Source: an uncultured Bacteriovoracaceae bacterium (GTDB lineage Bacteria > Bdellovibrionota > UBA2394). Taken from it: a DNA stretch of 64,000 nucleotides. Positions 8,870-54,857 of the stretch are shown piece after piece. Made by a program: the position numbers and the translations under genes. Positions within the stretch are counted from its first letter, which is position 1; the number at the start of each line of letters is the position of its first letter. The stretch covers positions 2,537 to 66,536 of the forward strand of contig CAZZLQ010000001.1 in assembly GCA_964655245.1 (NCBI GenBank), in the 5' to 3' direction. Under the pieces are notes generated by a model. It was not told the DNA's origin. It worked only from the letters and a program-made list of their open reading frames with translations, and did not search any database.

Positions 8870-9706
8870 ATGGGATTTTATAAGCCAGTAACACCTGCCA
8901 GACGTTTTTATACTCGGAGAGATTTCAGTCTTTTGACCCCAGGGGTTCAACCGACTAAGTCACTTCTTGAGCCATTGAAGTCGAGTGGCGGAAGAAACAA
9001 TCACGGACGGGTTACGTCCCGCTTCCGAGGTGGTGGACATAAAAAACTTTATCGAGTGATTGATTTTCGCCGCGATAAGATTGGTATTCCTGGACGAGTA
9101 TCAAGCTTGGAGTACGATCCAAATCGAAACGTTTGGATCGCGTTGATTAACTACGCGGATGGGGAAAAGCGTTATATTTTGGCGCCGCTGTCGCTGAATG
9201 TGAACGACGCTGTTTCATCGGGACCAGAGGCGGAGATCCGCCCTGGATGTGCTTTGCCGCTTAAGTCGATTCCAGTGGGTACTTTTATTCACAATATTGA
9301 ACTGAAGCGCGGCAAAGGTGGTGCCTTGGCTCGATCGGCTGGAACTTTTGCTCAGCTGATTGCTAAGGAAGGTGACTTTGCTTTGTTGCGATTGCCCTCG
9401 AGCGAGATCCGAAAGGTCAGCGTTGAGAATTTCGCTTCGATTGGCCAGTTGAGTAACCCGGATCACATGAACGTGAGTTGGGGTAAAGCCGGTCGTATTC
9501 GCTGGTTGGGACGAACTCCTCATAACCGAGGAACTTCTATGAACCCGATCGATCACCCGCACGGTGGTGGTCAAGGAAAGACAAAGGGTGGTCGTCATCC
9601 GGTTACTCCTTGGGGTCAGCCAACAAAGGGTTATCGAACAAGAAATTCGAAGCGAACTGATAGTATGCGTGTTCAGCGTCGAAATACCAAAACGGTGGTG
9701 AGCTAA
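8870..9706 (+). CDS. rplB: 50S ribosomal protein L2
   Basis: Canonical L2 motifs ([36 protein letters not shown]); 278 aa. Confidence 0.96.
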
Positions 9707-22446: not shown

Positions 22447-22902
22447 ATGACAAAGGCCAAGGGGAAGAAATCAGGGAAGAAACTCAACCCACAAGGGGGG
22501 GATGCATTGAAAGCGGAAAATGCCGTATCGGCCGAATCGGTGGCATTGCAGTCCAATAAAATTGTGATCTGCAAGGCCCAGGGGTGCCATGACATTGCAA
22601 CCACGCAGAGTCATTGCCGGTTTCACTATCTCGCTGGCTGGCGTAAATCTAAGACCAAAGAGGCAAGAAAGAAGGGCAAAGAGCTCGAAGTCTACTTGTC
22701 GGATCTCAGTAGGAAGTTTCCTGAGGAGTTCCTCGAGAAGATCAGAGCAGAAGTCGATGAGTTGATCGATCGCGAAAGCCGCTCAGAAGAGGCCTCAGAA
22801 GACACCACAGAGCGATCTGGGGGCTTTTTTGATGGGATTGAGGGTGGTGGTGACGACGATATGGATACCATCATCAAGGGTCTAAAAGTCGAAGATTATT
22901 AG
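22447..22902 (+). CDS. Hypothetical small protein: Lys-rich N-terminus, putative Cys/His metal-binding knuckle, acidic C-terminal tail
   Basis: 151-aa ORF with MTKAKGKKSGKK at the start, C-x4-C-H ... H-C-x2-H in the middle (ICKAQGCHD...SHCRFH), and a D/E/G-rich end (GGGDDDMDT). Confidence 0.5.
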   Translation: MTKAKGKKSGKKLNPQGGDALKAENAVSAESVALQSNKIVICKAQGCHDIATTQSHCRFHYLAGWRKSKTKEARKKGKELEVYLSDLSRKFPEEFLEKIRAEVDELIDRESRSEEASEDTTERSGGFFDGIEGGGDDDMDTIIKGLKVEDY

Positions 22903-22950: not shown

Positions 22951-23706
22951 ATGGAAACCCAGGGTCTACGAATTCATGCATATTTAGCGCAAATGGGGCT
23001 GGCTTCTCGCCGTAAGGTCGAGGACTACATTCAGAAGGGCTATATTCAAGTCAACGGAAAGCCAGCTCGTCTGGGTCAGATTGTTCAGCCCGGCAAGGAC
23101 GCTCTAACGTTCAAAGGCAAGCAGCTGAACTTCCCCAAAATGAAAAAGATTGTCGTTGTGGCAGTAAACAAGCCACGAGGGGTTGTTAGCACCTCTGACG
23201 ATCCAGAACGGCGAGCTAAAGTTGTTGATATGGTTCCCAAGAGTTTTGGACGACTCTACCCCGTGGGTCGGCTCGATCTTATGTCCGAGGGGCTGATTCT
23301 GCTCACCAATGATGGCGATCTTTCTTACCGTTTGACTCATCCAAAGTTTGAGATTCCCAAAACCTACGAAGTGAAGATTCGGGGACGATGGGATGCAGGT
23401 AAGCAGGAGTATCTTGAAAAGGGTATTCGAATTGGAAAAGAAAAGTTCGAGCCTGCAAAGATTCTTTCGGTTCGTGAGGCCGCACGTCGTGAGGGCGTGG
23501 AGAAAACAATCATTACGATCCAGATTCACGAAGGTAAATATCACCATATTCGACGGCTCTTTGAGGCGCTCAAATGTCATGTCATTCGATTGAAGCGAGT
23601 TTCGATGGGTCCCGTGACAATTAAGGGCATCCCCCTGGGCGGTTACCGAGTTCTCTCGAAGGCGAGAGTCGAGGAGCTCCACCAGTTCGTGGGTAATGAA
23701 GCATGA
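22951..23706 (+). CDS. 23S/16S rRNA pseudouridine synthase, RsuA/RluB family (S4 domain plus catalytic domain)
   Basis: S4-like N-terminus (RIHAYLAQMGLASRRKVEDYI..G.I.VNG) and the catalytic YPVGRLDLMSEGLILLTNDG motif. Confidence 0.85.
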   Translation: METQGLRIHAYLAQMGLASRRKVEDYIQKGYIQVNGKPARLGQIVQPGKDALTFKGKQLNFPKMKKIVVVAVNKPRGVVSTSDDPERRAKVVDMVPKSFGRLYPVGRLDLMSEGLILLTNDGDLSYRLTHPKFEIPKTYEVKIRGRWDAGKQEYLEKGIRIGKEKFEPAKILSVREAARREGVEKTIITIQIHEGKYHHIRRLFEALKCHVIRLKRVSMGPVTIKGIPLGGYRVLSKARVEELHQFVGNEA

Positions 23707-24767
23707 GCTTTCCTTGGCAGGCGCTCAATGTCGTGTTCAATGGGGTTTCACCTCTTGATATCGACCATCTCGAGCTGAAGTCCGAGGCGGAGGCGCACCA
23801 GTTTATTTTGAGCTATGGATTTGATTTGTTTGAATCCAGCCATGTTAGCTATTTGGAGAAGGTTTATTCTGAAACGATCGACTTTATTGACGCGTACCTC
23901 TGCACAGACGAGGTGAAGATCCCCGCTCCACTACGCAAACTAAACGTTGCCTCTGAGCTGAAGTCCTTGCTGCTTTTGAGTTCAGGTTTGGAGCAGCTGC
24001 CCACGGGATGGAATCCCGAATGGAGACCTTGGGCCTGCGCTATTTTGAGGGTGATCCATGTCTCCTTGCACTTAAAAAGCGACCTTCGATTAAAGTATCT
24101 GCCCAAGATTAAACGGCAAACCGTTGATCGTTTTTCAGCTCATGTTCAAGAAGGCGCAGAGGGAATGTTTCTTGGCTTTGAGTCCGATAAAGTGAAGCTG
24201 GCTCGGTTTGAAAAGAAGCAGGCTAAGGTGAGAGACTCGGTGTTGCTTAAGCTTCTTCATAAGCCATCGGCCATTGCGCAGGAGATTCACGATCATATCG
24301 GTGTGAGATTTGTCACTGAAGGGCGCGTAGATGCTGTAAGAGTTGTACAATACTTGATTGCTCACCATCTACTTTCGTTTCCAAACGTGATGGCTGCTCG
24401 TTGCAGGAACACTTTGATTGATCTGCAGGAGTTTAAAAAGGTCGTTGAGTCTGTGCCTGCCGAAGGGCTGAACGAAAAAACGATCGATTCGGTACTTTCT
24501 TATCCAAAGCTCGAAGATCGACAGAATCAGTTTAGTTCGGAGCGCTACCGCTCATTGCAGTTTACAACCCGACAGTTGATCAGAATCCCCGTAGTGAGGA
24601 GAGGGGTGAAATCGGAAATGACCTTTTTCTTCCCGCTTGAGATTCAGATTATGGATTTGGCTTCCTATGAAGAATCTCTGACTGGAAAATCGGGTCATGC
24701 TGAGTACAAACAAAAGCAATTGGAGGCCGTCCGGCAGCGAGTCTTGAAAGGATTGAGATTGGTATGA
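23703..24767 (+). CDS. RelA/SpoT-domain (small-alarmone-synthetase-like nucleotidyltransferase) protein with a ~170-aa N-terminal domain of unknown function
   Basis: C-terminal half carries the ordered (p)ppGpp-synthetase-fold motifs: HKPSAIAQEI (cf. VKPVASILEK), DHIGVRFV (DxxGxR), ERYRSLQF (YRS.H) and LEIQIMDLASYEE...HAEYKQK (EIQIRT...H..YK). ATGA overlaps with rluB upstream and rimO downstream. Confidence 0.6.
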   Translation: MSFPWQALNVVFNGVSPLDIDHLELKSEAEAHQFILSYGFDLFESSHVSYLEKVYSETIDFIDAYLCTDEVKIPAPLRKLNVASELKSLLLLSSGLEQLPTGWNPEWRPWACAILRVIHVSLHLKSDLRLKYLPKIKRQTVDRFSAHVQEGAEGMFLGFESDKVKLARFEKKQAKVRDSVLLKLLHKPSAIAQEIHDHIGVRFVTEGRVDAVRVVQYLIAHHLLSFPNVMAARCRNTLIDLQEFKKVVESVPAEGLNEKTIDSVLSYPKLEDRQNQFSSERYRSLQFTTRQLIRIPVVRRGVKSEMTFFFPLEIQIMDLASYEESLTGKSGHAEYKQKQLEAVRQRVLKGLRLV

Positions 24768-26184: not shown

Positions 26185-26257
<73 letters not shown>

Positions 26258-26314: not shown

Positions 26315-26959
26315 TTGGGCAAGATTTTCGTTGTGCTGGCGAAATTGCGATCCACATTTGTCATTGGCATTTTTGCATCGGCCCCGCTTGCGATCACGGG
26401 GTACGTTTTCTTTATTTTGTTCACTTGGTTCGACGGTTTTTTTCAGCCCCTGGTGATTAGACTTCTCGACACGCTCGGAGTTTATGACAAGCCGGTCCCA
26501 GGCTTAGGAATACTGCTTGGAATCATCTTTGTTTTTGTCATTGGCCTGTTAGCCCCCAGTCTGATTGGAAAGCAGCTTTTGGTCATTATGGAGCGAATCG
26601 TTGAGAGACTGCCGTTGGTAAAGTTGATTTATTCGGGGACTCGCCAAATCTTCGAGTCATTCTCCGGAGCGCAGTTGTCAAAATTCAATAGAGTCGTTGC
26701 AGTTCCATTTCCAAGCGAAAACTCTCTCGCCATCGGCTTGGTGACGTCTGAGGTAAAGGGTGGACTTGTCGCTGATAAAGCGAATCATAAAGTGGCGGTT
26801 TTTATTCCAACGACTCCAAACCCAACCAGCGGCTATTTGATTTATGTCGAGCCTCAGAAGGCGATGTCTATCAATATGAGTGTCGAGGATGCTCTTAAGT
26901 TGGTTATTTCTGGCGGTCTAGTGCAGCCCAAAATTGTCGATCGAGTTGATGCCAATTGA
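26315..26959 (+). CDS. DUF502-family membrane protein
   Basis: Two N-terminal TM helices followed by the conserved DUF502 core (PGLGILLGIIFVFVIG...VKLIYSGTRQI). Confidence 0.7.
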   Translation: MGKIFVVLAKLRSTFVIGIFASAPLAITGYVFFILFTWFDGFFQPLVIRLLDTLGVYDKPVPGLGILLGIIFVFVIGLLAPSLIGKQLLVIMERIVERLPLVKLIYSGTRQIFESFSGAQLSKFNRVVAVPFPSENSLAIGLVTSEVKGGLVADKANHKVAVFIPTTPNPTSGYLIYVEPQKAMSINMSVEDALKLVISGGLVQPKIVDRVDAN

Positions 26960-27036
26960 AAAATTGAAGAATTTCGGGTGCCTGCTTTTACCTGCTGCCT
27001 GGCGTTATAATTGTTGAAGGCAGGGAGTCACGGGAG

Positions 27037-27837
27037 ATGGTTCGGCGAACACTAGTTTATGATGCAGCATCACTACTGCGCGTAAAGCGAGAGAAGGCGC
27101 GTGAGGAAGCGGCCAAGCTGGATCCTAAAGGTCTGGAGGCGGCGCCTTCAACGCAGCCGGACTCAAGCTTAGAGCCCGACTCTCCTATGCGTGTCTTCGA
27201 TCATGCGGATGAATTCGTGGAGGTGAATAAGCCTAAAGTGTCGCAAATGATTGGAATCATTGGGGAAATGAAGAAAATGGCTGAGGCCTCGACGAATTCG
27301 GCTCTTTCCGATGAGGACCGCAAGCAGCTCAACATTAGGTTTGTAGAGAAGCGATCGAGTATCGATCGAATGGCAACTGAAACCGAGTTTCTCGGAAGGA
27401 AACTTTTTAACGGAGATCTCATGCGTGGATCTTTAAAGATTCCTGTAGGGAAGGGGCCCCTTGATGTTGTGGAAGTGCGTTTTGAGTCACTGAAAAATGA
27501 TATGACAGGCCTTGAGGGGCAAAAGATCGATACGTTGGTGAACGCTCGTAACGCCCTGAGGGAGATGGATAACGTCTACGCCCGATTTCAGCTTGTTGGG
27601 ATGATGTTCAAAGCAAAAGAAGATGAAATCAACGTGAAGCGTAAGCAGTTCATCGATGAGAATCGTATTCCTGAGGAAGTGGCAAATGCTCGAAAGCTGA
27701 AAGCCATTCAGGAGGTCGCCAATAAGCGACAGGAAGTGCAGCGAATGACTCTGCATATTGAGTTGAAAGAAGAGCAAGAGAGAATCGCTGAGTTCGAGGG
27801 GAGAGAGCGGGCACTTCTCATCAATCGAAAAATCTAA
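27037..27837 (+). CDS. Divergent flagellin-fold (D0/D1-only) protein lacking the canonical N-terminal secretion/D0 segment
   Basis: The central region aligns motif-for-motif with flagellin N-domain D1 (ASTNSALSDEDRKQL..IDRMATETEFLGRKLFNG...IPVGKGPLD...GLE versus TNSQSDLDSIQ..IDRVSGQTQFNGVKVL...IQVGANDGE...GLD). The C-terminus resembles the flagellin C-terminal D1/D0 (KIDTLVNARNALREMDNVYARFQ...IDEN..EEVAN...KAIQE). The conserved GLRINSAKDDAAG block is absent. Confidence 0.5.
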   Translation: MVRRTLVYDAASLLRVKREKAREEAAKLDPKGLEAAPSTQPDSSLEPDSPMRVFDHADEFVEVNKPKVSQMIGIIGEMKKMAEASTNSALSDEDRKQLNIRFVEKRSSIDRMATETEFLGRKLFNGDLMRGSLKIPVGKGPLDVVEVRFESLKNDMTGLEGQKIDTLVNARNALREMDNVYARFQLVGMMFKAKEDEINVKRKQFIDENRIPEEVANARKLKAIQEVANKRQEVQRMTLHIELKEEQERIAEFEGRERALLINRKI

Positions 27838-27838
27838 G

Positions 27839-30235
27839 CTAATGACTCATGGAGATTTCGGCTGCAGTATGCTTCCTCAAGCTCTTGAGGGGCGTCACAA
27901 ATGTCTCCATCAGATTCGGGGGTAAATCAAAAACGTGAAGCAGTACTTCATCCATATCAACGACTGGATGAAACTTAAAACTCTTAAGGATAGAAGAGTC
28001 GATTTCAGAAAGTTCTCTGAGATTGTCCATGGGGTAGACAATTGTATCAACACCCGCTCGCTTTGCCCCCAAAAGCTTTTCCTTGAGTCCTCCAATAGGC
28101 AAGACTCGACCTCGCAAACTGACTTCACCGGTGAGGCCCACTCTACGATTTACTTTCCAGCCTTTGATGGCGGAGAGAATGGCCACCGTTAAAGCTGTTC
28201 CCGCTGAAGGGCCATCCTTTGGCGTAGCGCCTTCGGGAACGTGGATGTGCAGATCGTGTTTTGAAAAAAAATCTGGCTCAATTTCAAACAGGGTGGCTTT
28301 CGATCGGATGTAGCTAATTGCTGCTCGAGCAGACTCTTGCATCACTGAGCCCAGTTGGCCCGTGATTTGGACGTCACCTTTGCCTATCAGAGAGACGGCT
28401 TCGATTCGAAGAACTTCGCCACCCACTGGAGTCCATGCCAAACCAGTTGAAACGCCTACATCATCGATGGGGCCAAGCTCACTTCGTTTGAAACGGGGCG
28501 CACCAAGATATCTCTCCACAGCCTCCTCGGACCATGCTCGAGGGCTTGGATGCGGGATCCCTGAGCTCTCCTCCCGAACGATCTTGCGACAAATTTTAGA
28601 AATCTGCTTCTCAAGGTCTCTAACGCCAGCTTCGCGCGTGAACCGACGAACAATGTAGGCGATGTCCTTTTCTGCAAGAGCTAGATCAGTTTCAGAGAGC
28701 CCATGGTTTCTGAGAACCTTTGGAACAATATAGTTTTTAGCTATTTGAATCTTTTCATCTTCAGAGTAGCCACTCAGTTGGATGATCTCCATTCTATCCT
28801 TGAGGGGTTGTGATATGGAGTCTGTGAAGTTTGCTGTGCAGATAAAGAGAACTTTGGAGAGATCATACTCGAGTTCCAAATAGTGATCTGAAAAGTGTTT
28901 GTTTTGTTCAGGATCGAGAATCTCAAGCAATGCTGATGCGGGATCCCCTCGAAAATCAGATCCCATCTTGTCGATTTCATCTAGCAAGATCACCGGATTA
29001 CTCACTGAAGCCTTTCGAATTGCAGAGATCACGCGTCCAGGAAGAGCGCCGATGTAGGTTCTCCGGTGACCTCGAAGCTCAGCTTCATCTCGTACTCCAC
29101 CCAAAGAAATCTTTTCGAACTTTCTATTCAAGGATCGAGCAACCGAGCGAGCCAAAGATGTCTTTCCAACCCCAGGAGGTCCCATCAGGCACAGAATGGG
29201 CGATTTGTGCTGAGTCACTCGGGCCCTGACGGAGAGGAACTCTAGAATGCGATCTTTGGCATCTTGGATGCCGTAGTGGTCCTCATTAAGAATTCGCTCT
29301 GCCTGCAGAAGATCTTTGGAATCCTCTGATAGTTCATCCCACGGAAGATCAAGAATGAGGTCGACATAGGCCCTGACCATCTGAGCTTCGGCTGCGTGCC
29401 CACCTGCTTTCAAACGCTTGATTTCCTTCAGAGCTTTTTCCCTAGCGTAGGCTGGCATCTTCTTGGACTCTAACTTCTTTTCGAGTTCAACGGCTTCAGA
29501 GCGGGGGTCTAGATTTTCCTGTCCAAGCTCCTTCTGGATGGCGGCCATTTGCTCGTGGAGATAGTAATCACGATGAGATTTTTCAATCTGCTCCTTTACC
29601 TTGCCTCTGATTTTTCGATCCAGTTTCAGAATCTCAATCTCAGCCAAGATGAGCAGGCTCAAGGCTTCTAGGCGTTCGGGAGCGGGCAGAGTATCTAAAA
29701 TTTTCTGCTTATCTCTCAGTTTCACGGAGATTTGAGAGGCAATGACATTACAAAGGCGATGCGGAGATTCAAGACTGTCGAGGCTTCGGAAAACCTCGTC
29801 TAAGGGGCGGCCACTGTTTTTGAGATATGCCTCATAATGAGTCAACAGCGTTCTCATGAGAATACGTTCCGCACTTGTCGCCGTATGATCTTCATCAGGT
29901 AGACGCTCGACCGATGAAACCAGAAAGCCATCCGTGTCTCGGAGACTGTTGATCTTGGCTCGGAAAAGGCCCTCAACCACAACCTTGAGATTGCCTTCGG
30001 GCATTTTGGTCATGTGCTTGATTCTCGCAATCGTTCCAATGGAGTGGAGATGTTGAATGGCGGGATCTTGAACCTGCGGCTCGCTTTGAGTCACAAGAAA
30101 GACAATTCGGTCATTTCCATCGGCGACATCAATGGCTCTGAGTGATCGACTGCGACCCACATACAGAGAGACACTGGTGTTTGGAAAAACAACAACGTCA
30201 CGAAGTGGAAGTACGGGAAGAGCGCTTAGATTCAT
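27839..30235 (-). CDS. lon: ATP-dependent Lon protease
   Basis: 798 aa with a Lon N-domain, AAA+ Walker A (GPPGVGKTSL) and a C-terminal serine protease domain (PKDGPSAGTALT). Confidence 0.95.
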   Translation of the reverse strand: MNLSALPVLPLRDVVVFPNTSVSLYVGRSRSLRAIDVADGNDRIVFLVTQSEPQVQDPAIQHLHSIGTIARIKHMTKMPEGNLKVVVEGLFRAKINSLRDTDGFLVSSVERLPDEDHTATSAERILMRTLLTHYEAYLKNSGRPLDEVFRSLDSLESPHRLCNVIASQISVKLRDKQKILDTLPAPERLEALSLLILAEIEILKLDRKIRGKVKEQIEKSHRDYYLHEQMAAIQKELGQENLDPRSEAVELEKKLESKKMPAYAREKALKEIKRLKAGGHAAEAQMVRAYVDLILDLPWDELSEDSKDLLQAERILNEDHYGIQDAKDRILEFLSVRARVTQHKSPILCLMGPPGVGKTSLARSVARSLNRKFEKISLGGVRDEAELRGHRRTYIGALPGRVISAIRKASVSNPVILLDEIDKMGSDFRGDPASALLEILDPEQNKHFSDHYLELEYDLSKVLFICTANFTDSISQPLKDRMEIIQLSGYSEDEKIQIAKNYIVPKVLRNHGLSETDLALAEKDIAYIVRRFTREAGVRDLEKQISKICRKIVREESSGIPHPSPRAWSEEAVERYLGAPRFKRSELGPIDDVGVSTGLAWTPVGGEVLRIEAVSLIGKGDVQITGQLGSVMQESARAAISYIRSKATLFEIEPDFFSKHDLHIHVPEGATPKDGPSAGTALTVAILSAIKGWKVNRRVGLTGEVSLRGRVLPIGGLKEKLLGAKRAGVDTIVYPMDNLRELSEIDSSILKSFKFHPVVDMDEVLLHVFDLPPNLMETFVTPLKSLRKHTAAEISMSH

Positions 30236-30284: not shown

Positions 30285-31544
30285 TTAGGCCGTTTCAGCC
30301 GCTTGTTTTTCCATCAAAAGAATGGGCTTTTCCTTCTTGAGGATCACGTCTTCATTGATGATCACCTCTTTAACGTCCGTTCGAGAGGGTATCTCATACA
30401 TAATGTCGACCATGGCATCCTCGAGAATGGCTCTTAAGCCCCTAGCTCCTGATTTACGCTCCAACGCCATCCGAGCGACCGCTCTTAGAGCATCTTCGGT
30501 GAACTTGAGTTTGACGTTCTCAAAGCCAAAAAGCTTTTGGTACTGACGTACAATCGCATTCTTGGGTTTTCTGAGAATATCGATCAGGGCCTCTTCATCG
30601 AGTTCTCGCAAAGTCGCAATCACGGGGATACGGCCAATGAACTCGGGGATCATTCCAAACTTCAGGAGATCCTGAGGTTCGATTTTCTCCAAGAGGTCGC
30701 CGACTTTTCGGTCTTTCTTCGAGGTTACAGTTCCACCGAAACCGATCGAGTTCTTACCCAATCGACGGGCGATGATTTCATCAAGGCCCACAAAGGCCCC
30801 ACCGCAGATAAAGAGAATATTGGTGGTATCGACTTTGAGAAACTCCTGTTGGGGATGCTTTCGTCCGCCTTTAGGGGGGACGTTGGCCATTGTTCCCTCA
30901 ACAATCTTGAGGAGGGCCTGCTGAACACCTTCTCCACTGACATCACGAGTGATGCTGGGGTTTTCGCCTTTTCTCGAAATCTTATCGATCTCATCGATAT
31001 AAACGATCCCACGCTGAGTCTTTTCAATATCGTAATCAGCGTTTTGCAGAAGGTTGAGAATGATATTTTCAACATCTTCACCAACATACCCAGCTTCTGT
31101 CAGGGTGGTGGCATCAACCATGGTGAAGGGCACTTTGAGAAGACGGGCCAAAGTTTGGGCTAAAAGTGTCTTTCCCGATCCAGTGGGGCCAATCAAGAGG
31201 ATGTTGGATTTCTGTAACTCGACATCATCCTTTGAACCTGTTTTGGCATTAATTCTTTTGTAATGGTTATGAACGGCAACCGAGAGAGTTCTCTTAGCTC
31301 TGTCTTGGCCGATTACATAGTCATCGAGAACTTTTTTGATTTCCGCAGGTTTTGGAACCTTAGCGGTTTCGGAGGGCAAGTCGTTGCTGTCGTATTCCTC
31401 GGCAATGATGTCATTACAGAGCTCAATACATTCATCGCAGATATAGACACTGGGTCCAGCAATGAGCTTTTTAACTTCGCTTTGATGCTTTCCACAGAAA
31501 GAACAACAAAGATCCCCGCCTCGATCTTCTTCTTTACGACTCAT
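30285..31544 (-). CDS. clpX: ATP-dependent Clp protease ATP-binding subunit ClpX
   Basis: N-terminal C4 zinc finger (CSFCGK...CDEC), Walker A GPTGSGKT and an IGF-like loop. Start chosen at the internal ATG at 31544 (AGGAGG Shine-Dalgarno upstream); the ORF-track start at 31595 would overlap clpP. Confidence 0.93.
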
Positions 31545-31557
31545 CCACCCCTCCTTG

Positions 31558-32202
31558 TTATTTCTTAGAAGTCGTCTCTGCGACTTGCGCAGCACGGCTT
31601 TCTACGATCTTATCCACAATTCCATAGCCTAAGGCGTCCTGAGCACTCATCCAGCGATCCCGGTCCGTATGGACCAGTATATCATCCATTCGCTGACCTG
31701 TATGCTTGGCCAAGATCTGATTCAGCTGCTCTCGCAGTCTCAAGATCTCTTTAGCTTGAATCTCGATGTCAGAGGCTTGGCCCTGAGCACCACCCAAAGG
31801 TTGGTGAATCATGACTCGAGAGTGGGGGAGAATAAACCTTTTGCCCTTGGTTCCCGCGGCCAACAAAACCGCTCCCATCGACGCTGCCATTCCCAGACAG
31901 ATCGTGGTTACAGGAGGCCTGATGTACTGAATGGTGTCGTAGATGGCCATTCCAGCGCTCACCGAGCCGCCAGGGCTGTTGATATACAGGTAGATATCCT
32001 GATCGGGATCCTCAGACTCCAAGAACAGCAGTTGAGCCACGATCAAATTGGCGATCTGATCGTCAATCGGAGTTCCTAGAAGAATAATCCGATCTCTGAG
32101 GAGTCGTGAGTAGATATCATAAGCTCGTTCGCCTCGGTTGGTTTGCTCAATAACGATTGGAACCATCGAGTTTGTAACGACTGACCTGCTATTTGCTTCC
32201 AT
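31558..32202 (-). CDS. clpP: ATP-dependent Clp protease proteolytic subunit ClpP
   Basis: ClpP catalytic context (GMAASMGA...H) and a 214-aa length. Confidence 0.94.
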
Positions 32203-33663: not shown

Positions 33664-35145
33664 TTACAGCAGAAGCTTCCTGATGCGCTGGAGCAAAACG
33701 GGGGGAGGTTCTATTTGCTTCAGCTGCAAGTACCGACGAATCGCGAGTGCTGTGCTGCCGTGAAATCGATCAGAAACGCGAGCCATGGAAATGGGCAGAG
33801 ACAGCTCTTCAATCTGATCCATCAAATGTGTTCGAAAGAGCTCAATTTGATTAGTACGAAGGATGAGCTTGTGAATATCTCCCTGGTACTTTGTTTTTAA
33901 AAGCTGATCGATTTTTTTCACCAGAACTTCATCTACAACATCTCTCTTGAACCATGTTCCTTTTGAAGAGTAGCCAAGATGGTAGGTTCGAAGTTGCTCG
34001 GCGATTTCCGGACGTCCCTTGAGATTCAGATATTCTTTGAGCGCTCGGTAGGGGCTGTTGCCATAGTTGTGGCCTATGTTTCCCATCGAGATGGTGAGAC
34101 GAAGTCCTGCGACTTCCTCTTCGAGCGGGGTCTTGAAGAGTTCCTGGCAGTTTGTTTCACCGATGAGCATCGCCAAGTCGCCGAGGTATCGTGATCGAAG
34201 TAGGTAGTCGATTTTTCTCACCAAGATCTCTTGTCTGATCTCTTTCTGAGACCAGATACCTCGTTGAGTTTGAAGGAGGTGGTAGGGTTTTACAGCTGCC
34301 GCAAGTTCGTTGAGTCCCTTGAGTTTCATATAGTCTTTGAGAGCGGCATACACACTGCCTCGATAGATCTGTCCGATTCGCCCCATCGACACCTCAAGTT
34401 TCAATCCGGAAATGTTCTCAATCAAGGGCTCTTGAAATAGTTCCCTTTTGTTTGTCTGCGATAGTAGTGCATCAACTTTGCCATGGTACTTTTCCTCGAG
34501 GAGCTGATCGATTTTTTTGATGAGAATCGCATGAAGAGTTTCTTCATCGGTCCAAGTATTCGTTGGGGATTGACGAAAGTGATAGGGGCGAATCTGTCCT
34601 GCCAGCTGATTCCAACCTTTGAGATGGAGATAGTGTTTGATGGTGAGGTAAGGGCTTCCCTTAAAGAACTCACGAATAGACTTCATAGAGACCGAAAGCT
34701 TTTTTGTCCCAATCGTTTCTTCGAAACGAGTCGGAAACAATTCATCTTGGCCCGTTTCCATAATCATTCTTGCAAGATTCTGCCGGTATTTTGTTTCAAG
34801 AAGCCGATCGACTTGTTTCAAAAGAACTTCATTGCGAGTTTCCTCGTTCCAGACATCGATGACGAATCGCGCGTGATAGGGACGCACACTTGTCGGAAGT
34901 CCCAAGGCTTGTGCAGAAGTCATAGCGGCAATCAAAGTGGAGATTGGAATGTTGCGCTTGAGGGGGTGCACTCGGCCTTGAGCGTCAGGGCCTCGGTTTC
35001 GCAGAAGAAACTGCGTGATCTCGGAGATCAAATCTCGGCAGGCTGCCGGAGCTTCATAGGCTGAGGAATTGGCCTCCAGTCGACCAAGGAAAAATGCGAT
35101 GAGAACAGACAAAAGCACATGATGGACAAAAAATCGGCGGCTCAT
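33664..35145 (-). CDS. Secreted protein of unknown function composed of four tandem ~100-aa repeats
   Basis: Signal-peptide-like N-terminus (MSRRFFVHHVLLSVLIAFFLGRLEA) then four repeats sharing PYH..(6-7)..W..(8)..L..KID.LL..KY.G.....L...TN..ELF...L......L.L..SM..I...Y..S.Y.ALK.YL.LKG. Start taken at the internal ATG at 35145. Confidence 0.7.
   Translation of the reverse strand: MSRRFFVHHVLLSVLIAFFLGRLEANSSAYEAPAACRDLISEITQFLLRNRGPDAQGRVHPLKRNIPISTLIAAMTSAQALGLPTSVRPYHARFVIDVWNEETRNEVLLKQVDRLLETKYRQNLARMIMETGQDELFPTRFEETIGTKKLSVSMKSIREFFKGSPYLTIKHYLHLKGWNQLAGQIRPYHFRQSPTNTWTDEETLHAILIKKIDQLLEEKYHGKVDALLSQTNKRELFQEPLIENISGLKLEVSMGRIGQIYRGSVYAALKDYMKLKGLNELAAAVKPYHLLQTQRGIWSQKEIRQEILVRKIDYLLRSRYLGDLAMLIGETNCQELFKTPLEEEVAGLRLTISMGNIGHNYGNSPYRALKEYLNLKGRPEIAEQLRTYHLGYSSKGTWFKRDVVDEVLVKKIDQLLKTKYQGDIHKLILRTNQIELFRTHLMDQIEELSLPISMARVSDRFHGSTALAIRRYLQLKQIEPPPVLLQRIRKLLL
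33712..34884 (-). repeat. Four tandem, diverged ~300-bp in-frame coding repeats (about 98, 100, 100 and 93 codons)
   Basis: Repeat units begin at protein residues about 104, 202, 302 and 402 (RPYH / RPYH / KPYH / RTYH) and share roughly 30-40% amino-acid identity with conserved spacing. Confidence 0.7.
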
Positions 35146-35200
35146 TTCGGATGAGCAACTGCCAGATTCAGGGCTGTAAGTGAATAGCCCCAAAGAACAA

Positions 35201-36865: not shown

Positions 36866-38656
36866 TTAAAAGCCAATATTAAGGCCAGCGGGGCGCAGAT
36901 AGCTTAGCATCCGGTCTAGCGATTCCCTCACTCGAGTCAGCACTTGAGCTTGCATTTCAGATTTGGGTCGCCCTTCGTATTTCTTTTGTCCCTTTCCGTG
37001 AGGAAAGGTCTCCACCTTGAGCATTTCACCAGTGGGTGAATACTTCACGACAATCGTGCCTTCATCCTTGAGGGTAATGGATTGGGGCTTTCCATACTCC
37101 CAATAGGTGAACGCGATTTCATCGCCTTTGAGTTGATCTCTCAAGAACAAGAGCTTTCCGTTCTTGTTGTATTGTAACTTGAGATGCATCGTGGGTTTAC
37201 TCGCGGCAAGCTCTTTGGCTTCAACGAGATTGCATCGTGGGTCAAAAGTGAAGTTGAGAGAAGATTCCTTTCCTTGAGCAGTTTTGAGAGCAATCATCTT
37301 CACTTGGCTGCATCGTGCTTCATAGTCAAAAGTCATCAGGTCGCCTGAGGGAACTGACTGCCGACTGATCATGTTTCCTGTATTGGGATCATAGACGTAT
37401 TTGTCCCCTTGTCCTCGGGCATCTAAGACAGACGCGGGATAGCCTGTTTCCTTGGAAAATGTCTTCGTCTCTCGAGATGTTTCTTTGTCGGAGGAGTCAT
37501 GTTTGCTCACCCGCTCAAACTCTTTGAGTTTGAACTCATGAATCTCTTTCCCGACGTAGCGATCACCCTCGTACTTGGAAATTTCGGTAATGCTGTGACT
37601 GCTGTTGTTCCCTGGAAAGCTGCGAGAGTACTTAGACACCTTTGTTCCGGGCCCGGACTGCTTGGCGACTTCGTACTTGGCATTGTACTCGAATCGAATC
37701 TCTTCTTTGTCCTTCCCGGGAGCGGAGGTGATCATTTTGGTCATATTGCCTACTTTGTCGTACTCAAACTCCATTTTCTTTCCAGAGACATCGGTGAAGG
37801 ATTTTAAGCGGCGAGAGGGCAGCATTTCATAGGTTGCCTTCCGACCGAGTGAGTCAGTGATTTCTCGAACGAGTCCCTTGAGCGCTGAATCCGCTTGATA
37901 GGCTAAGTTCACGGATCGACCGCACATATCATTAATTCGAATCAGATTTTCGTCAGCGTAAGCATAGTCAATTGCGTTTCCGTTTCGATCCTCAGATCGA
38001 ATGAGTCGGCCCGATGAATTGAAAAACTCCTGGGAGGAATTCTGGAACCGCCTTACAAAAGTACCATCGGGTCGAAGCTCGATGGTCGAAGGTCCTCTGG
38101 CAAAGCTATAGTACGTCCCGGGACCTGCCATCGGTTGAGTCGCAAGGAGCTTGCTCGCCAGCTGTTCTCGGAAGCGCTCTTCGTTGATGAGTTTGCGACG
38201 AAGTTCCTCATACGCCGTTGGCGATTTGATTCCTCCCGCCTGCACATCGACTTTCTTTTGAGCGACAAGAATCTTTTCAATCTGAGCGGTCTTTGCTTCC
38301 TCGAGATTCCGCTCCTTGGTGTAAACGTTAGTGAAGCCGTCTCCCTCCAAAACCTCGATTCTGGCTGGCGCTCTCTTCACACGAATATTGTGATTGAATG
38401 TCCACTTATCTCCAAAGATGCTCGAGTTTCCCGAGTAGGAGTTGTAGGCCATTTTGAGTTCAATCGGAGCATAACAAGGTAGTGCGAAGTGATCTTCAAT
38501 CGGTAGAAAAAAGTTTAAGGTGCGTACATTCACAGGATCAGGAGGATAGTGATAGAAAAATGTTGTGCCTTGCGGGCCGTACCCAAGTGACTCCTCATGA
38601 GACGCGCTGGCTGTGACAGACAGGCTGAAGATCAGTCCAAAGCAGAAGAATTTCAT
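36866..38656 (-). CDS. Secreted YD-repeat (RHS-like repeat) protein, no recognisable C-terminal toxin domain
   Basis: Signal peptide MKFFCFGLIFSLSVTASA, then multiple YD-type repeats (NAIDYAYADENLIRIND..GRSVNLAYQ..., GRKATYEM..., KMEFEYDKVGNMTKM, IRFEYNAKYEV, KYVYDPNTGNMIS, MTFDYE). Confidence 0.7.
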   Translation of the reverse strand: MKFFCFGLIFSLSVTASASHEESLGYGPQGTTFFYHYPPDPVNVRTLNFFLPIEDHFALPCYAPIELKMAYNSYSGNSSIFGDKWTFNHNIRVKRAPARIEVLEGDGFTNVYTKERNLEEAKTAQIEKILVAQKKVDVQAGGIKSPTAYEELRRKLINEERFREQLASKLLATQPMAGPGTYYSFARGPSTIELRPDGTFVRRFQNSSQEFFNSSGRLIRSEDRNGNAIDYAYADENLIRINDMCGRSVNLAYQADSALKGLVREITDSLGRKATYEMLPSRRLKSFTDVSGKKMEFEYDKVGNMTKMITSAPGKDKEEIRFEYNAKYEVAKQSGPGTKVSKYSRSFPGNNSSHSITEISKYEGDRYVGKEIHEFKLKEFERVSKHDSSDKETSRETKTFSKETGYPASVLDARGQGDKYVYDPNTGNMISRQSVPSGDLMTFDYEARCSQVKMIALKTAQGKESSLNFTFDPRCNLVEAKELAASKPTMHLKLQYNKNGKLLFLRDQLKGDEIAFTYWEYGKPQSITLKDEGTIVVKYSPTGEMLKVETFPHGKGQKKYEGRPKSEMQAQVLTRVRESLDRMLSYLRPAGLNIGF

Positions 38657-38767
38657 TATGTTAAGAACGGAAAGCACTTCTTCAATGATAACTGAAGCTG
38701 GGGATTTTCAGGCAGAATTTCCTTTAGGGAAAGCGTTGGAAATGGTGCGAAGCGTCGATGATTTAGC

Positions 38768-51523: not shown

Positions 51524-52375
51524 TCATGGTCCAAAGCTAAACAGCACTCCTCGTTCGGAGTCGTACTCGCCGTCGAGACTATGTCCCGATGTGCTTCTGA
51601 GTTCCGCTGTTGGACGAATCTTGATCAAAAGCCATGGTGACCACTGCGGCCAGCCGTTGAGCGGCATGAAGCGCAGTGTATTGCAAACATTGCTAGGCGG
51701 TGGACAGCGCAAGCACACCTGTCCGCTCAGCGCTGGAATGGTGATGTTCCCCCCGGCAAATGAAAGTCCCGAAATCTGAAAGGCATCATTCCACATATTG
51801 GAACAATAGTTGTTAATGTTCGGGTAGATGGGTTTTGAAAACTGCACATCGATGGGATTGCCCGGCATAATCAAATAGGACTCGGGCTTGATCTTGCTCA
51901 CATGAAATGCCCCACCGCTTGCATTGGTTGCAAACTCTTCTGTTCTAAATTCGAATGAGTAAGGCGCAATGAGATAGCCTTCACTGTCTTTAAGATATTC
52001 AGTGTAAACGCGGTATGTAACGCCGGGATCCATCGCCATTGGTGAGCCGTTGATCATCCGTGTGAATTCTAATCGGCTGTTTCCGTTGGTGAGTTGAATT
52101 TGACCGGCAAGAGGATTGCCAGCTTCATCCTCGATTCTAAAACTAAAATAATCGATGGAGCGCTGATCCAGAGGTCCAGAGAACTGAATAAGAACTTCGG
52201 CGTCCATAGGAATCTCTTCATCGTTTTCAAAAGGGTAGTGTTCGACAACTGAAACAGTTGCCGAAAGATTCGCATTTCCTACTCGGTTCACCTTTGTGGC
52301 GGAGAGATCTGCCATGCAGCCGGACAGACCCCATGAGAGCGCAATCACAAGAGGGCTCAAGCTAAGCTTTTTCAT
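51524..52375 (-). CDS. Lipoprotein with an Ig-like (SbsA/Big_5-type) domain
   Basis: Lipobox LSGC after a signal peptide; the Ig-like-domain pattern (VLIQFSGPLDQRSI...FRIEDEAGNPLAGQIQLTNGNSRLEF...GVTYRVYTEYLKDSEGY). Confidence 0.6.
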   Translation of the reverse strand: MKKLSLSPLVIALSWGLSGCMADLSATKVNRVGNANLSATVSVVEHYPFENDEEIPMDAEVLIQFSGPLDQRSIDYFSFRIEDEAGNPLAGQIQLTNGNSRLEFTRMINGSPMAMDPGVTYRVYTEYLKDSEGYLIAPYSFEFRTEEFATNASGGAFHVSKIKPESYLIMPGNPIDVQFSKPIYPNINNYCSNMWNDAFQISGLSFAGGNITIPALSGQVCLRCPPPSNVCNTLRFMPLNGWPQWSPWLLIKIRPTAELRSTSGHSLDGEYDSERGVLFSFGP

Positions 52376-53610
52376 AAGCCACCGCCTCCTAAAAAGTTAA
52401 ACAGAAGGGCTCTAGGATCCTGAAAGCCTGTTGGCAAAGTCATTCCTGAGAAGTGCAAAAACGCTCCTGCTGCCATTCCATTGTTTTCGAGCGCTTTGGG
52501 CGTAGATGTTCCAAAGCTCTCGAGATCAAAAAATCCGCTGAGAACGACCACGACGGCTTGGGCAATATCGTCAGGATAGGTTTTTCCGGGATCCAACTCG
52601 AACACGAGAACGCGTCGGCCGTTTTCCGTTCGAACTTTACCCGAAAGTTGCTGATAAAAATTCTGCTGAACAAACTGGTTCCATGCAGCTGTATTGTTCA
52701 TGGCATTACTCATGTTTTGAAGGAGGTTGGATGTCATTGTTGAAGAGCTCAAGACTCCTACGACCATGCCTCCAAATTGGCTGATTGGGGTTGGCGGAAT
52801 TTCAGGACGCTGCACGAGGGCTGAGGTCGTCTCCGAAAAATGCCGAATCGGTTCAGTAAACAAAACACGAATCGGGGTGTTGGCCACCCAAGTGGTGTAA
52901 CTCGAGATCGCATCTCGCAACGATTCGGATCCAAAGCTTCCTCCGGAGATGAGTTTGCCCGGTGTGATCGCTCGAATTTTGAGAAACGCTTGAGATGAAT
53001 CTGAGTATTGATTGGATGTGATGAAAGTGGTGCTTCCGCTAATCAGGGGCACGGTGCCCGATTCGTCGCGGATTCCAGTGAGCTCTGCGGGGGCATTGGC
53101 AGATCCCTCGGGGCTGGCTCTCCACATCAAAAAGTATCGCCGCATGGGCAGGAAGAAGCGATTGGGAGGGCGCAGCTTCAGTTGAGAAACCAGGACGGGG
53201 TTTCCATTGGCATCCTTTGCTCCGGAAGGATCGGGAACAAAGCGTGCTGTCGGAGTAACATTTCCAGGAACTCGAGCTCCTTCATCAGTAAAGAGTTCAA
53301 AGTTTTCCGGACGAGCAGAGTAGGCATCAATTCGGCGATTGAATGTGATCCGAATCTCTTCATCGGGATTTACTCGCATCTGTTCGTTGATGGGAAGAAA
53401 GTTGACGACAGGCCGACCAGCGGAATCCTTGATTGCACGCCCCGATGCATCTCTTTGCACTCGCTCAACGCCAACTTGAGTGACTTCAAGTGTGCCTGCT
53501 AGGTTTTCGTAGTATTGAGGTGAGGGGCTTTGCACGCCGCCGACACAGGCACTGAGTAAAGTGCAGGCTGCAAAGAGAGGGCTTAGTTTTTGTTTTGAAA
53601 AAAATCTCAA
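52372..53610 (-). CDS. Lipoprotein with Ig-like domain(s), paralogous to its neighbours
   Basis: Lipobox LSAC; Ig-like domain pattern (EEIRITFNRRIDAYSARPENFELFTDEGARVPGNV...). ATGA overlap with the downstream gene. Confidence 0.6.
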   Translation of the reverse strand: MRFFSKQKLSPLFAACTLLSACVGGVQSPSPQYYENLAGTLEVTQVGVERVQRDASGRAIKDSAGRPVVNFLPINEQMRVNPDEEIRITFNRRIDAYSARPENFELFTDEGARVPGNVTPTARFVPDPSGAKDANGNPVLVSQLKLRPPNRFFLPMRRYFLMWRASPEGSANAPAELTGIRDESGTVPLISGSTTFITSNQYSDSSQAFLKIRAITPGKLISGGSFGSESLRDAISSYTTWVANTPIRVLFTEPIRHFSETTSALVQRPEIPPTPISQFGGMVVGVLSSSTMTSNLLQNMSNAMNNTAAWNQFVQQNFYQQLSGKVRTENGRRVLVFELDPGKTYPDDIAQAVVVVLSGFFDLESFGTSTPKALENNGMAAGAFLHFSGMTLPTGFQDPRALLFNFLGGGGL

Positions 53611-53642
53611 AAGAAAATCTCCCCTGGTTATCTTTCCAACAA

Positions 53643-53712
53643 CCTTTCAAAGCAAATCACTGCCTCTTGATTTGCTTTGAAAGGGGCTGAAAGCTTCAAC
53701 AGCGTTCAGCCC
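53643..53712 (-). terminator. Two stacked perfect hairpins (17-bp stem with 8-nt loop, then 8-bp stem) within the lipoprotein operon; candidate internal terminator or attenuator
   Basis: CCTTTCAAAGCAAATCA-ctgcctct-TGATTTGCTTTGAAAGG (perfect 17-bp arms, 53643-53684) immediately followed by GGGCTGAA-agcttcaacagcg-TTCAGCCC (53685-53712). On the minus strand the large hairpin is followed by a T-rich tract (TTGTTGG). Confidence 0.55.
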
Positions 53713-53739
53713 TTTCGAAGGTAAGATATTGATCGGGTC

Positions 53740-54708
53740 TTAGTTACCCGTTGTGAATGGCGAGAAGTACGAGCCATTCATATAAACTTCCGCATTGGAG
53801 CGTAAGCTTCTTGCAACAACCAACAAGTAGTTCTTGTTGGGAACGAAGCCGCTACCCCCAGCGCTAACAATCACTTGGTTGCCCTGAACCTGAGCTTGAA
53901 CGCCCGGGATCGGATTCAACAGAGGCATTCCAGGAACCCATCCCGATTGAAGTTCATAGATTCGAATCGAGCTCGCAACAGTCAATTGATCCACGGAATC
54001 ATTGAACTGAATGATGATACTGGTGTTCGGAGGAACGTTACCGATTCCTAGGAAATTTCCGAACAAGCCGCTCAAAATGCTCGTTCCAAAGGTTTGACCG
54101 AAGCTGGTCCAGTCGAACACAAAGTTTCCGGCCGCATCAACAGAGCCAAATTGATCGACGTTTGTTGACTTAAGCTGTCGGGGAATTCCCACAACGGCGT
54201 AAGGATAAAATTGCTCAGATTGTGCACAACTTGAGCCCAGGATGTCCCCAGTCGTAAAAGTCACAGAGTCTCTTTGAATGCCGACAGATCCAAAGGGAGT
54301 ATCGCGGAAGGACATTCCGTAATTGTGATTGGGGATGAGAGCTTTCTTGGGCTTAAAGATAAACTTACAGCCTTTAGAAACGTCTGCAGGATCGACCAAC
54401 ATAGGAGCCGCCATTGTGGTGTCTACGGGAACATCAGGACCCGTGTTCATTGAGAACAGCGTGAAAGCCGATGAAACATCGTTCCAGTTACAGGCACGAG
54501 CATCGCCCACGGACACAGTGAATGTGCTTCGTCGGCAGACGTTGGATTGTCCTTGAGTGGGGTTGATCCATGTGACGGAGTCGGGATCAGCATCGACGTT
54601 TTCATTTGGAAACGGTCGACCGCCAGATCCACCAGATCCACAAGCATTCAAAAGAAAGCCTGCGACAAAACTCAATACGAGAGTTTTGGTTTGAATTGAA
54701 GATTTCAT
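53740..54708 (-). CDS. Lipoprotein with Ig-like domain(s), first gene of a three-paralog cluster
   Basis: Start taken at the internal ATG at 54708 (MKSSIQTKTLVLSFVAGFLLNACGSGGSGG, lipobox LNAC); Ig-like pattern (TWINPTQGQSNV..STFTVSV...). The ORF-track start at 54777 adds 23 non-signal residues. Confidence 0.6.
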   Translation of the reverse strand: MKSSIQTKTLVLSFVAGFLLNACGSGGSGGRPFPNENVDADPDSVTWINPTQGQSNVCRRSTFTVSVGDARACNWNDVSSAFTLFSMNTGPDVPVDTTMAAPMLVDPADVSKGCKFIFKPKKALIPNHNYGMSFRDTPFGSVGIQRDSVTFTTGDILGSSCAQSEQFYPYAVVGIPRQLKSTNVDQFGSVDAAGNFVFDWTSFGQTFGTSILSGLFGNFLGIGNVPPNTSIIIQFNDSVDQLTVASSIRIYELQSGWVPGMPLLNPIPGVQAQVQGNQVIVSAGGSGFVPNKNYLLVVARSLRSNAEVYMNGSYFSPFTTGN

Positions 54709-54857
54709 AGTGTTCTTACCTTCCCTATTTTTTTGAAGTCGGATTCCCTTCTTAAAAGGCAAGAAATAGCGCCCCAACTTCTTGGCACTACTCCCATCAA
54801 AGGCCTATGATCGCAATCCTTGTGCCAGGTATGAAAAAGAGTGCGTGGTAGGCTAAG

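Follow-up and report, generated by a model that had tools for sequence, protein, structure and literature searches.

We analyzed a 64,000-nucleotide stretch of the genome of an uncultured Bacteriovoracaceae bacterium (contig CAZZLQ010000001.1; hereafter the window), centering on a 266-residue open reading frame (ORF) on its plus strand at 27037–27837. An earlier note, made from the sequence alone, had given these coordinates exactly and had described the product as a flagellin-fold protein without the N-terminal D0/secretion segment. The gene is single-copy, lies directly downstream of a gene for a DUF502 membrane protein in every locus examined, and belongs to a block with the order (rpoA-rplQ-ahpC-x-rluB-like-[TIGR04552]-rimO)-(tRNA-Thr)-DUF502-[flagellin-like gene], facing (lon)-clpX-clpP-tig. 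This order covers the window, eleven other distinct DNA contexts and two contigs available as gene lists only; individual loci and family members are denoted below by L and P numbers, respectively. In the window the gene stands tail-to-tail with lon on the opposite strand, as had been noted, and the ORFs that we scanned from 33 to 64 kb include no flagellar gene. The product, a remodelled flagellin-superfamily member without D0, falls in no curated family of Pfam or NCBIfam. The earlier description thus holds, and in fact goes less far than the evidence does, as both D0 segments, the C-terminal one included, have been replaced.

The flagellin resemblance of this protein is real and beyond chance, yet partial. 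In Pfam it matches Flagellin_N above the gathering threshold (35.1 bits versus 26.6, E=1.7e-8); the alignment joins only residues 60–126 to positions 70–136 of the 139-position profile, and Flagellin_C (PF00700) gives no match even at E≤10. Among the 27 sequences of our family alignment (A3, which includes about 22 distant full-length representatives), Flagellin_C is matched by none at E≤0.01 and Flagellin_N by 19. A search of the PDB with the single sequence returned flagellins exclusively (best E=4.5e-5). The highest-scoring NCBIfam flagellin model reaches 31.5 bits where its cutoff is 436, and the curated cutoffs are reached by neither the query nor the family, all scores lying far below them. 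Profile-profile comparison (hhalign) of the family with 30 canonical short flagellins gave a probability of 99.4% and E=5.4e-21, with family residues 57–217 aligned to flagellin positions 71–233 of 287, i.e., late ND1a, ND1b, the beta-hairpin and most of CD1. A significant match to flagellin profiles is thereby established both for the single protein and at the family level, and four of the motifs that the earlier note had singled out (TNS-SD-D, IDR..T.F.G.KL, I.VG and KID.L) lie within the significant alignment.

When the family profile was split and each part set against reversed flagellin controls, the D1 core matched at E=2.9e-24 (reversed control 0.097), the N-terminal segment compared with the flagellin N-terminus at E=0.66 (0.86), and the C-terminal segment compared with flagellin C-termini at E=0.27 (0.43). 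Since the E-values for the two terminal segments are about those of the reversed controls, the family termini are no closer to flagellin D0 than to reversed flagellin. At the N-terminus this agrees with a merged alignment of the family and flagellins, and the absence of both the N-terminal D0 and the SGLRINSAKDDAAG block, read from the single sequence by the earlier note, is borne out. At the C-terminus the outcome differs: the note had aligned residues ~190–266 with the flagellin C-terminal D1/D0 helices, and the D0 part of this, at residues ~218–266, is not supported by the split-profile result or by any Flagellin_C match. The “EEVAN...KAIQE” likeness adduced for it is plausible by eye; it is confined to the closest subgroup, lies in a variable, gapped stretch of the family alignment, and failed the profile test against reversed controls. 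As for the Flagellin_C region (the end of CD1 plus CD0, with a terminal L.LL), only the first half of flagellin CD1 aligns with the family.

The merged alignment also shows how much of the flagellin signature has gone. Of 42 columns conserved to at least 80% in flagellins, the family keeps only 7 and has lost the other 35. The S-G-x-R-I-N-x-A-x-D-D-A-A-G block is deleted, with gaps or unrelated residues in the SGLRINSAKDDAAG columns, and RMRELAVQ, R..LGAxQNR and SxIxDADxAxE are lost as well; the R, G and R of R..LGA.QNR are kept in 0% of family members. A frameshift or misassembly hiding a normal flagellin N-terminus, named beforehand in the earlier note as decisive against its reading, did not turn up: hidden or frameshifted flagellin N- or C-terminal sequence is absent from every frame of the whole window, and only 23 open codons precede the ATG. 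Although its fold is the same as that of flagellin, with the ND1a and ND1b helices, the beta-hairpin and the CD1 helix of D1 all present, the protein falls outside the flagellins by a full Flagellin_N match, by Flagellin_C and by the curated cutoffs.

The closest homologues, five in number, are 61–100% identical to the protein and all 265–266 residues long. A profile search of 1.84 billion cluster representatives recovered 577 proteins at E≤1e-3; the top ~25 (P0005–P0028) are 240–283 residues long and nearly all align to the query end to end, and below them rank ordinary flagellins, matched over their central part only and with an offset of about +14 residues. A further search with the family profile yielded 7 proteins, a metagenome scan with the subgroup 3 loci, and a genome scan with the close-subgroup alignment one metagenome-assembled genome, of Bacteriovoracaceae, as the nearest genome match. 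The clusters that we looked up are tiny (1–4 member sequences) and the members nearly all metagenomic; the ClpX proteins of several family-bearing contigs share one 90%-identity cluster with that of a named Bacteriovoracaceae bacterium. No Pfam or NCBIfam family describes these proteins, and a literature search on the family, on DUF502 function and on flagellin-like proteins in Bdellovibrio/Bacteriovorax found nothing specific. They form a small, undescribed and vertically inherited family, founded by the 266-residue protein and apparently restricted to Bacteriovoracaceae-type Bdellovibrionota. Recent horizontal transfer is out, given the conserved synteny and the native GC content of the gene, both overall and at third codon positions.

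The family is further set apart by motifs not seen in flagellins: an N-terminal Y-[H/N]-P-x-x-[I/L]-x-x-x-K-R, the central L-D-D-x-D-R-K, L-F-S-G-x-F and [K/R]-[I/V]-D-S-[L/I]-V-N-A-R-K-A, and a C-terminal Q-E-x-x-A-x-A-K-G-R-x-x-[A/G]-L-L-[I/V]-N followed by three residues. These motifs, the length and the genomic position have been kept even though the gene is the fastest-evolving of its block. In close loci the encoded protein is 69–74% identical where its neighbours are 83–100% identical; in divergent loci its identity falls to 22–29%, against 80–87% for RpoA, 86–94% for ClpX, 49–55% for DUF502 and 39–59% for Tig. The ratio of nonsynonymous to synonymous substitution rates (dN/dS) against two orthologues is about 0.10, a sign of purifying selection, as opposed to 0.003–0.04 for RimO, DUF502, Lon, ClpX, ClpP and Tig, these values being approximate with dS near saturation.

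AlphaFold2 modelling with the 27-sequence alignment gave a mean predicted local distance difference test (pLDDT) score of 79.7, and predicted a helix at residues 10–27, a disordered stretch at 28–49, helices at 50–85 and 92–115, a beta-hairpin at 117–147, helices at 167–209 and 213–254, and an unstructured tail. Structure prediction, which the earlier note had proposed as a check for a D0/D1 hairpin, hence returned the D1-type helices and the beta-hairpin, but the C-terminal helix that accompanies them has no detectable CD0 similarity. Conservation is distributed unevenly over this architecture. In the N-terminal motif, positions Y8 and R18 vary little or not at all among the 27 sequences. The linker that follows (residues 28–49) stands where flagellin has the spoke (SGLRINSAKDDAAG) and the start of ND1a, with gaps at the hallmark columns, and is the least conserved region of all, at 1.38 bits per column. 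The region of the C-terminal helix (218–254) is variable and gapped across the family. The last 12 residues are the most conserved region (2.81 bits per column, with L260 invariant), and because this highest conservation of the family coincides with predicted lack of structure, the tail is a candidate docking peptide. Its K-G-R-x-x-A-L-L-I-N resembles the L-G-R-G-L-x-A-L-L peptide at the N-terminus of ParB, which stimulates ParA-type ATPases; the spacing is off by one residue. A ParA/MinD/FlhG-type protein is a partner idea that comes from this likeness. In composition the family likewise departs from canonical short flagellins: charged residues make up 34% versus 20%, the isoelectric point is 8.4 versus 5.5, N/Q/S/T content is 19% versus 31%, and proline content is 2.75% versus 0.70%.

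The signals upstream of the gene are not those of a flagellar promoter. The element GCG[T/C]TA[T/C/A]A[A/C]T, usually preceded by GCTGC (N3-5), is found in the short spacer between DUF502 and the gene in 11 of 11 distinct loci whose encoded proteins are only 22–29% identical. Where the start codon is well defined, the element sits 22–36 nucleotides before it; the rest of the spacer is unalignable. GCGYTATAMT is present a single time in the 64 kb of the window, where 0.09 occurrences would be expected. No good -35 hexamer accompanies this sigma70-type -10 box. The sigma28 promoter for which the earlier note had suggested looking was not recovered: neither a sigma28 (TAAA-N15-GCCGATAA) nor a sigma54 element has a conserved match in six divergent loci, although the phylum’s own sigma28 consensus may differ. 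The upstream sequence of the L007 canonical flagellin gene, our positive control, does contain GCCGATGA and GCCGATTC, with two GCCGAT sigma28-like cores. A sigma54-like TGGCGT-N5-TTGT that overlaps the -10 box of the window was rejected, as it is not conserved in the orthologues; so was a hairpin in the 5' untranslated region (CTGCC...GGCAG) around the -10 box, which is present in the close subgroup only and not in L007 or L009. Rfam recognized no RNA family in the region except the tRNA. The called start of P0010 (L011 731–775) lies too far upstream, its N-terminal “LCVIIN” being the translated GCGTTATAAT box; as this start falls in the promoter box, N-terminal extensions in some database entries are false, possibly including those of P0017 and P0027.

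The immediate neighbourhood is that of housekeeping genes. The tRNA-Thr(CGU) is found immediately 5' of DUF502 in six loci, namely the window, L001, L003, L007, L009 (tRNA at 9202–9274) and L016. The pairing of DUF502 with the flagellin-like gene survives insertions after rimO, consisting of three unrelated genes in L009/L010 and of a beta-lactamase gene in the contig of P0006. The three-gene insertion of L009 sits 5' of the tRNA, outside the unit formed by the tRNA, DUF502 and the flagellin-like gene. These insertions between rimO and DUF502, upstream of the tRNA in L009, suggest an integration hot spot beside the tRNA. Hydropathy and the positive-inside rule predict for the DUF502 protein an N-terminus on the inside, two transmembrane helices, and a cytoplasmic C-terminal domain of ~130 residues. 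On the other side, the stop codons of the flagellin-like gene and lon are 1 nucleotide apart in the window (27835–27841), and in other loci the two ORFs as called overlap by 4–75 nucleotides (L007 10800–10816, L011 1549–1552, L012 1687–1761). With no intergenic space for a terminator, each convergent transcript must end inside the opposite gene, and antisense overlap or transcriptional interference between the flagellin-like gene and lon could result. The adjacency to lon mentioned by the earlier note is true of the window but not universal: in the L004/L013 subgroup (“Deltaproteobacteria bacterium CG11”) lon is missing at this position and clpX directly faces the gene. A functional link to lon was rejected, as the genes converge and lon is absent from one subgroup, leaving general synteny only; lon is probably a feature of the context and not a functional partner. 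In L007, a family-bearing genome, a canonical flagellin gene lies ~7 kb from the family member, and Bdellovibrio-and-like organisms (BALOs) carry 5–6 fliC genes (PMC3526173), so that canonical flagellins coexist with the family in this clade.

Several other genes of the window recur elsewhere or have recognizable domains (Table 1). The 354-residue TIGR04552 gene is conserved in the block and absent from the L004/L013 subgroup. The product of the ORF between ahpC and the rluB-like gene is 48–57% identical in the more divergent loci. The real start of clpX is probably the ATG at 31544, given orthologues of 418–419 residues. A gene similar to the DUF6531/RHS gene lies at the matching relative position on a relative’s 157-kb contig, and the tandem Big_5 genes may represent a surface or adhesin gene cluster.

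Table 1. Features of the flagellin-like gene, its product and its surroundings; positions refer to the window unless a locus is named
Feature	Position	Strand	Description and basis
Flagellin-D1-derived protein gene	27037..27837	+	ATG-initiated ORF, 266 aa plus stop
N-terminal motif and short helix, residues 8–27	27058..27117	+	Y-[H/N]-P-x-x-[I/L]-x-x-x-K-R, replaces flagellin ND0; 27-sequence alignment, AlphaFold2 helix 10–27
Variable disordered linker, residues 28–49	27118..27183	+	Acidic and Pro/Ser-rich; pLDDT <50 at residues 29–46
Flagellin D1 core, residues 57–217	27205..27687	+	Late ND1a, ND1b, beta-hairpin, CD1; motifs DD.DRK, LF[S/N]G, [K/R][I/V]D[S/T][L/I]VNAR[K/N]A
Long, highly charged C-terminal helix, residues 218–254	27688..27798	+	At flagellin CD0 position, without detectable CD0 similarity; AlphaFold2 helix 213–254
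C-terminal tail, residues 255–266	27799..27834	+	G-R-x-x-[A/G]-L-L-[I/V]-N plus 3 residues; alignment; pLDDT ~43
Promoter-like element	26994..27011	+	GCTGC-N3-GCGTTATAAT; sigma70-type -10 hexamer TATAAT at 27006–27011, 25 nt before ATG
Shine-Dalgarno sequence	27022..27027	+	AGGGAG, 9 nt 5' of ATG; direct sequence reading; conserved in L001, L003
tRNA-Thr, anticodon CGU	26185..26257	+	5' edge of unit tRNA-Thr/DUF502/flagellin-like gene; ARAGORN; Rfam tRNA 44.5 bits
DUF502 (PF04367) membrane-protein gene	26315..26959	+	214 aa; ORF; Pfam DUF502 assigned on orthologues
lon	27839..30235	-	798 aa, convergent with flagellin-like gene, 1-nt gap; ORF; Pfam domains on orthologues
clpX	30285..31595	-	ORF as called starts at GTG, 436 aa, overlaps clpP
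TIGR04552/TIGR04562 protein gene	23703..24767	+	354 aa, 318 bits; faint RelA/SpoT-region match; 4-nt overlap with rimO
Syntenic ORF between ahpC and rluB-like gene	22447..22902	+	151 aa; no Pfam/NCBIfam match
Syntenic ORF downstream of tig	33664..35193	-	508 aa; no Pfam/NCBIfam match
DUF6531 + RHS-repeat protein gene	36866..38677	-	602 aa; like N-terminal part of polymorphic toxin
Three tandem genes with Big_5 Ig-like domain	51524..54777	-	282, 411, 344 aa; each with a Big_5 match, two below Pfam cutoff
Canonical flagellin gene	L007 18085..19947	-	620 aa; FG-GAP (beta-propeller repeat) insertion between Flagellin_N and Flagellin_C

Taken together, we consider it on balance probable that this protein is the descendant of a short flagellin, in which D1 (three helices and the beta-hairpin) has been kept, both D0 segments and the spoke have been replaced, and the product likely serves as an intracellular adaptor or scaffold. 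In known flagellins, D0 and the spoke serve export, FliS binding and polymerization. Given the loss of these parts, together with a cytoplasmic-like composition, we regard it as very unlikely that the 266-residue protein is a subunit of the filament; most likely it remains inside the cell. The “non-exported paralogue” of the earlier note is plausible but unproven; it fits the loss of D0 and the spoke, the charged composition, the sigma70-type promoter and the housekeeping setting. In the adaptor or scaffold that we envisage, rigidity would come from the D1 rod, and the conserved peptides at both termini would fold against a partner, or several partners, in the manner of the disordered ends of flagellin, which fold against FliS or adjacent subunits. 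The most promising candidate for a partner, chosen by adjacency only, would be the cytoplasmic domain of the DUF502 protein. We put forward more tentatively, as a possibility on the doubtful side, that this is the first recognized family of an exapted flagellin D1 domain, with a non-filament intracellular job, new terminal docking peptides and a function exerted together with DUF502. The protein might conceivably help to tune flagellin or the biogenesis of the flagellum in the course of the predatory cycle.

Several points weigh against this interpretation. The signals by which flagellins are exported via the flagellum's type III secretion system (fT3SS) are poorly defined at the sequence level, and for this reason sequence alone leaves room for export; the localization, partner and phenotype of the protein are likewise deduced from sequence. 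A collinear full-length alignment with a 270-residue flagellin extends to residue 257, which, along with the LL pair near the C-terminus, leaves room for a much-diverged D0-like coiled coil. As the whole rpoA-to-tig block is syntenic, adjacency to DUF502 is weak evidence of a functional link, and DUF502 evolves far more slowly than its presumptive partner (49–55% versus 22–29% identity). Finally, the sigma28 consensus of this phylum may differ from the one that we used.

The foremost competing explanation, also raised by the earlier note as a “regulator or chaperone decoy”, is a non-exportable flagellin mimic that would bind a FliW/CsrA-type sensor, an FlbT-type co-repressor, FliS or a modifying enzyme and thereby set flagellin synthesis, perhaps with turnover by Lon/ClpXP. 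The shared D1 fold and the intracellular-looking composition speak for it, as do a precedent in Caulobacter, where the regulatory flagellin paralogue FljJ acts together with FlbT (PMC7591256), and the setting of a host clade that possesses 5–6 flagellin genes and rebuilds its flagellum after shedding it (PMC3526173). However, a decoy should retain the conserved surfaces of flagellin, and these are mostly lost here: with 7 of 42 hallmark columns kept, the D1/D0 surfaces recognized by known partners have disappeared, and the C-terminal subdomain of flagellin that FliS requires (PMC5466977) is unrecognizable. Moreover, FljJ is full-length and exported, unlike the 266-residue protein, no flagellar gene lies nearby, and lon is convergent and missing in one subgroup. 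So weakened, and with no specific support, the decoy is in our estimate unlikely.

Somewhat less likely still is an exported fT3SS substrate, either a secreted FlaC-like flagellin or a minor filament, junction or sheath subunit of the sheathed BALO flagellum. The order of N-helix, D1 and C-helix is collinear with that of short flagellins, as the alignment to residue 257 illustrates, the termini are predicted to be flexible as in flagellin, FlaC exemplifies a flagellin relative that is secreted without polymerizing, and fast evolution would suit an exposed protein. Against these stand the D0 and spoke, normally the most conserved parts of axial proteins, which are unrecognizable here, whereas FlaC itself retains D0-D1; a variable, unstructured acidic/polar linker (28–49) in place of the spoke; a composition far from that of secreted flagellins; and a housekeeping-gene setting with no sigma28-type promoter.

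Two further explanations are effectively excluded. Identity with FlgL (HAP3), the hook-filament junction protein, is suggested by the automatic JGI label “flagellin-like hook-associated protein FlgL” of P0004 and P0007 and by weak matches to TIGR02550 (flgL) in 12 of the 27 members (best E=2e-7), and the LFSG motif resembles the [I/L]F[A/S]G motif of FlgL. Nonetheless, it is highly improbable: all model scores are far below the curated cutoffs, the axial-protein D0 termini that FlgL keeps are missing in the family, no flgK or other flagellar gene is a neighbour, and the JGI label is a generic COG name that spans flagellin and FlgL. Least probable of all is a decaying flagellin relic or spurious ORF, as its status as the fastest-evolving gene of the block and the loss of flagellin hallmarks could intimate, since dN/dS is ~0.10, a length of 240–283 residues and new invariant motifs are maintained in ~27 sequences, the promoter and ribosome-binding site are conserved, the fold is predicted with confidence, and the position is kept in all loci.

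Few bacterial proteins have been studied as well as flagellin, whose terminal D0 regions are normally the most conserved. In the family described here this is reversed, as the D1 core has been retained and both D0 segments have been rebuilt into motifs that are themselves conserved. The descent of an intracellular protein from flagellin would mean that the flagellin fold is recruitable for another role, and the new architecture joins a short list of non-structural flagellin relatives, comprising FljJ and FlaC. At the level of annotation, these genes are mislabelled when called “flagellin” or “FlgL” automatically. For the time being, practical consequences are limited, the family being small, nearly all metagenomic and without an assigned function. 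Bdellovibrio-and-like predators shed and rebuild their flagellum in the life cycle; were the family to take part in flagellar control, or to act in partnership with DUF502, it would pose a testable question in a predator clade. If D1 has indeed been exapted to work with DUF502, the family would exemplify a new evolutionary fate for flagellin and provide the first functional handle on the widespread, uncharacterized DUF502.

Among known systems, flagellin itself (FliC/FlaA/Hag; PF00669 + PF00700) is the closest, and its short, D0-D1-only types of ~270–285 residues share with the family their length and helix order, as well as the motifs N..L.D.DR, F.G..L..G and the ID at the start of CD1. Unlike flagellin, the family has no ND0, no SGLRINSAKDDAAG spoke and no recognizable CD0/Flagellin_C; it is charged and basic, whereas flagellin is acidic and rich in N/Q/S/T; and it is preceded by a sigma70-type promoter outside any flagellar locus, in contrast to the sigma28 or sigma54 promoters of flagellins. 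Caulobacter crescentus FljJ is alike in being a flagellin-family protein whose main role is not filament building, and is a precedent for neofunctionalized paralogues (PMC7591256). FljJ co-represses flagellin translation with FlbT, is full-length and 49% identical to structural flagellins, and is glycosylated, exported via the flagellar apparatus with FlaF and incorporated beside the hook (PMC7591256). The family differs from it in the loss of the D0 termini and, as far as sequence features indicate, in bearing no sign of export. Campylobacter jejuni FlaC is, similarly, a short relative of flagellin that lacks D2/D3 and does not form the filament; it carries D0-D1, binds FliS, which needs the C-terminal subdomain of flagellin, and is secreted by the flagellar T3SS (PMC5466977). 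In the family D0 is replaced and unrecognizable and the composition is cytoplasmic-looking, which sets it apart from FlaC-type proteins. In E-value, the match to FlgL/HAP3 lags some ten orders of magnitude behind that to flagellin; neither a score above cutoff with TIGR02550 or other models, nor D0 termini, nor pairing with flgK was found in the family. Lastly, Helicobacter pylori HP1076 is a helical protein of the cytoplasm that binds FliS, has a flagellin/HAP-like fold and is much smaller (a chain of 119 residues). No sequence relationship between HP1076 and the family was detected, the structural match being at the level of the helical bundle only; the family, unlike HP1076, is a true sequence homologue of flagellin D1.

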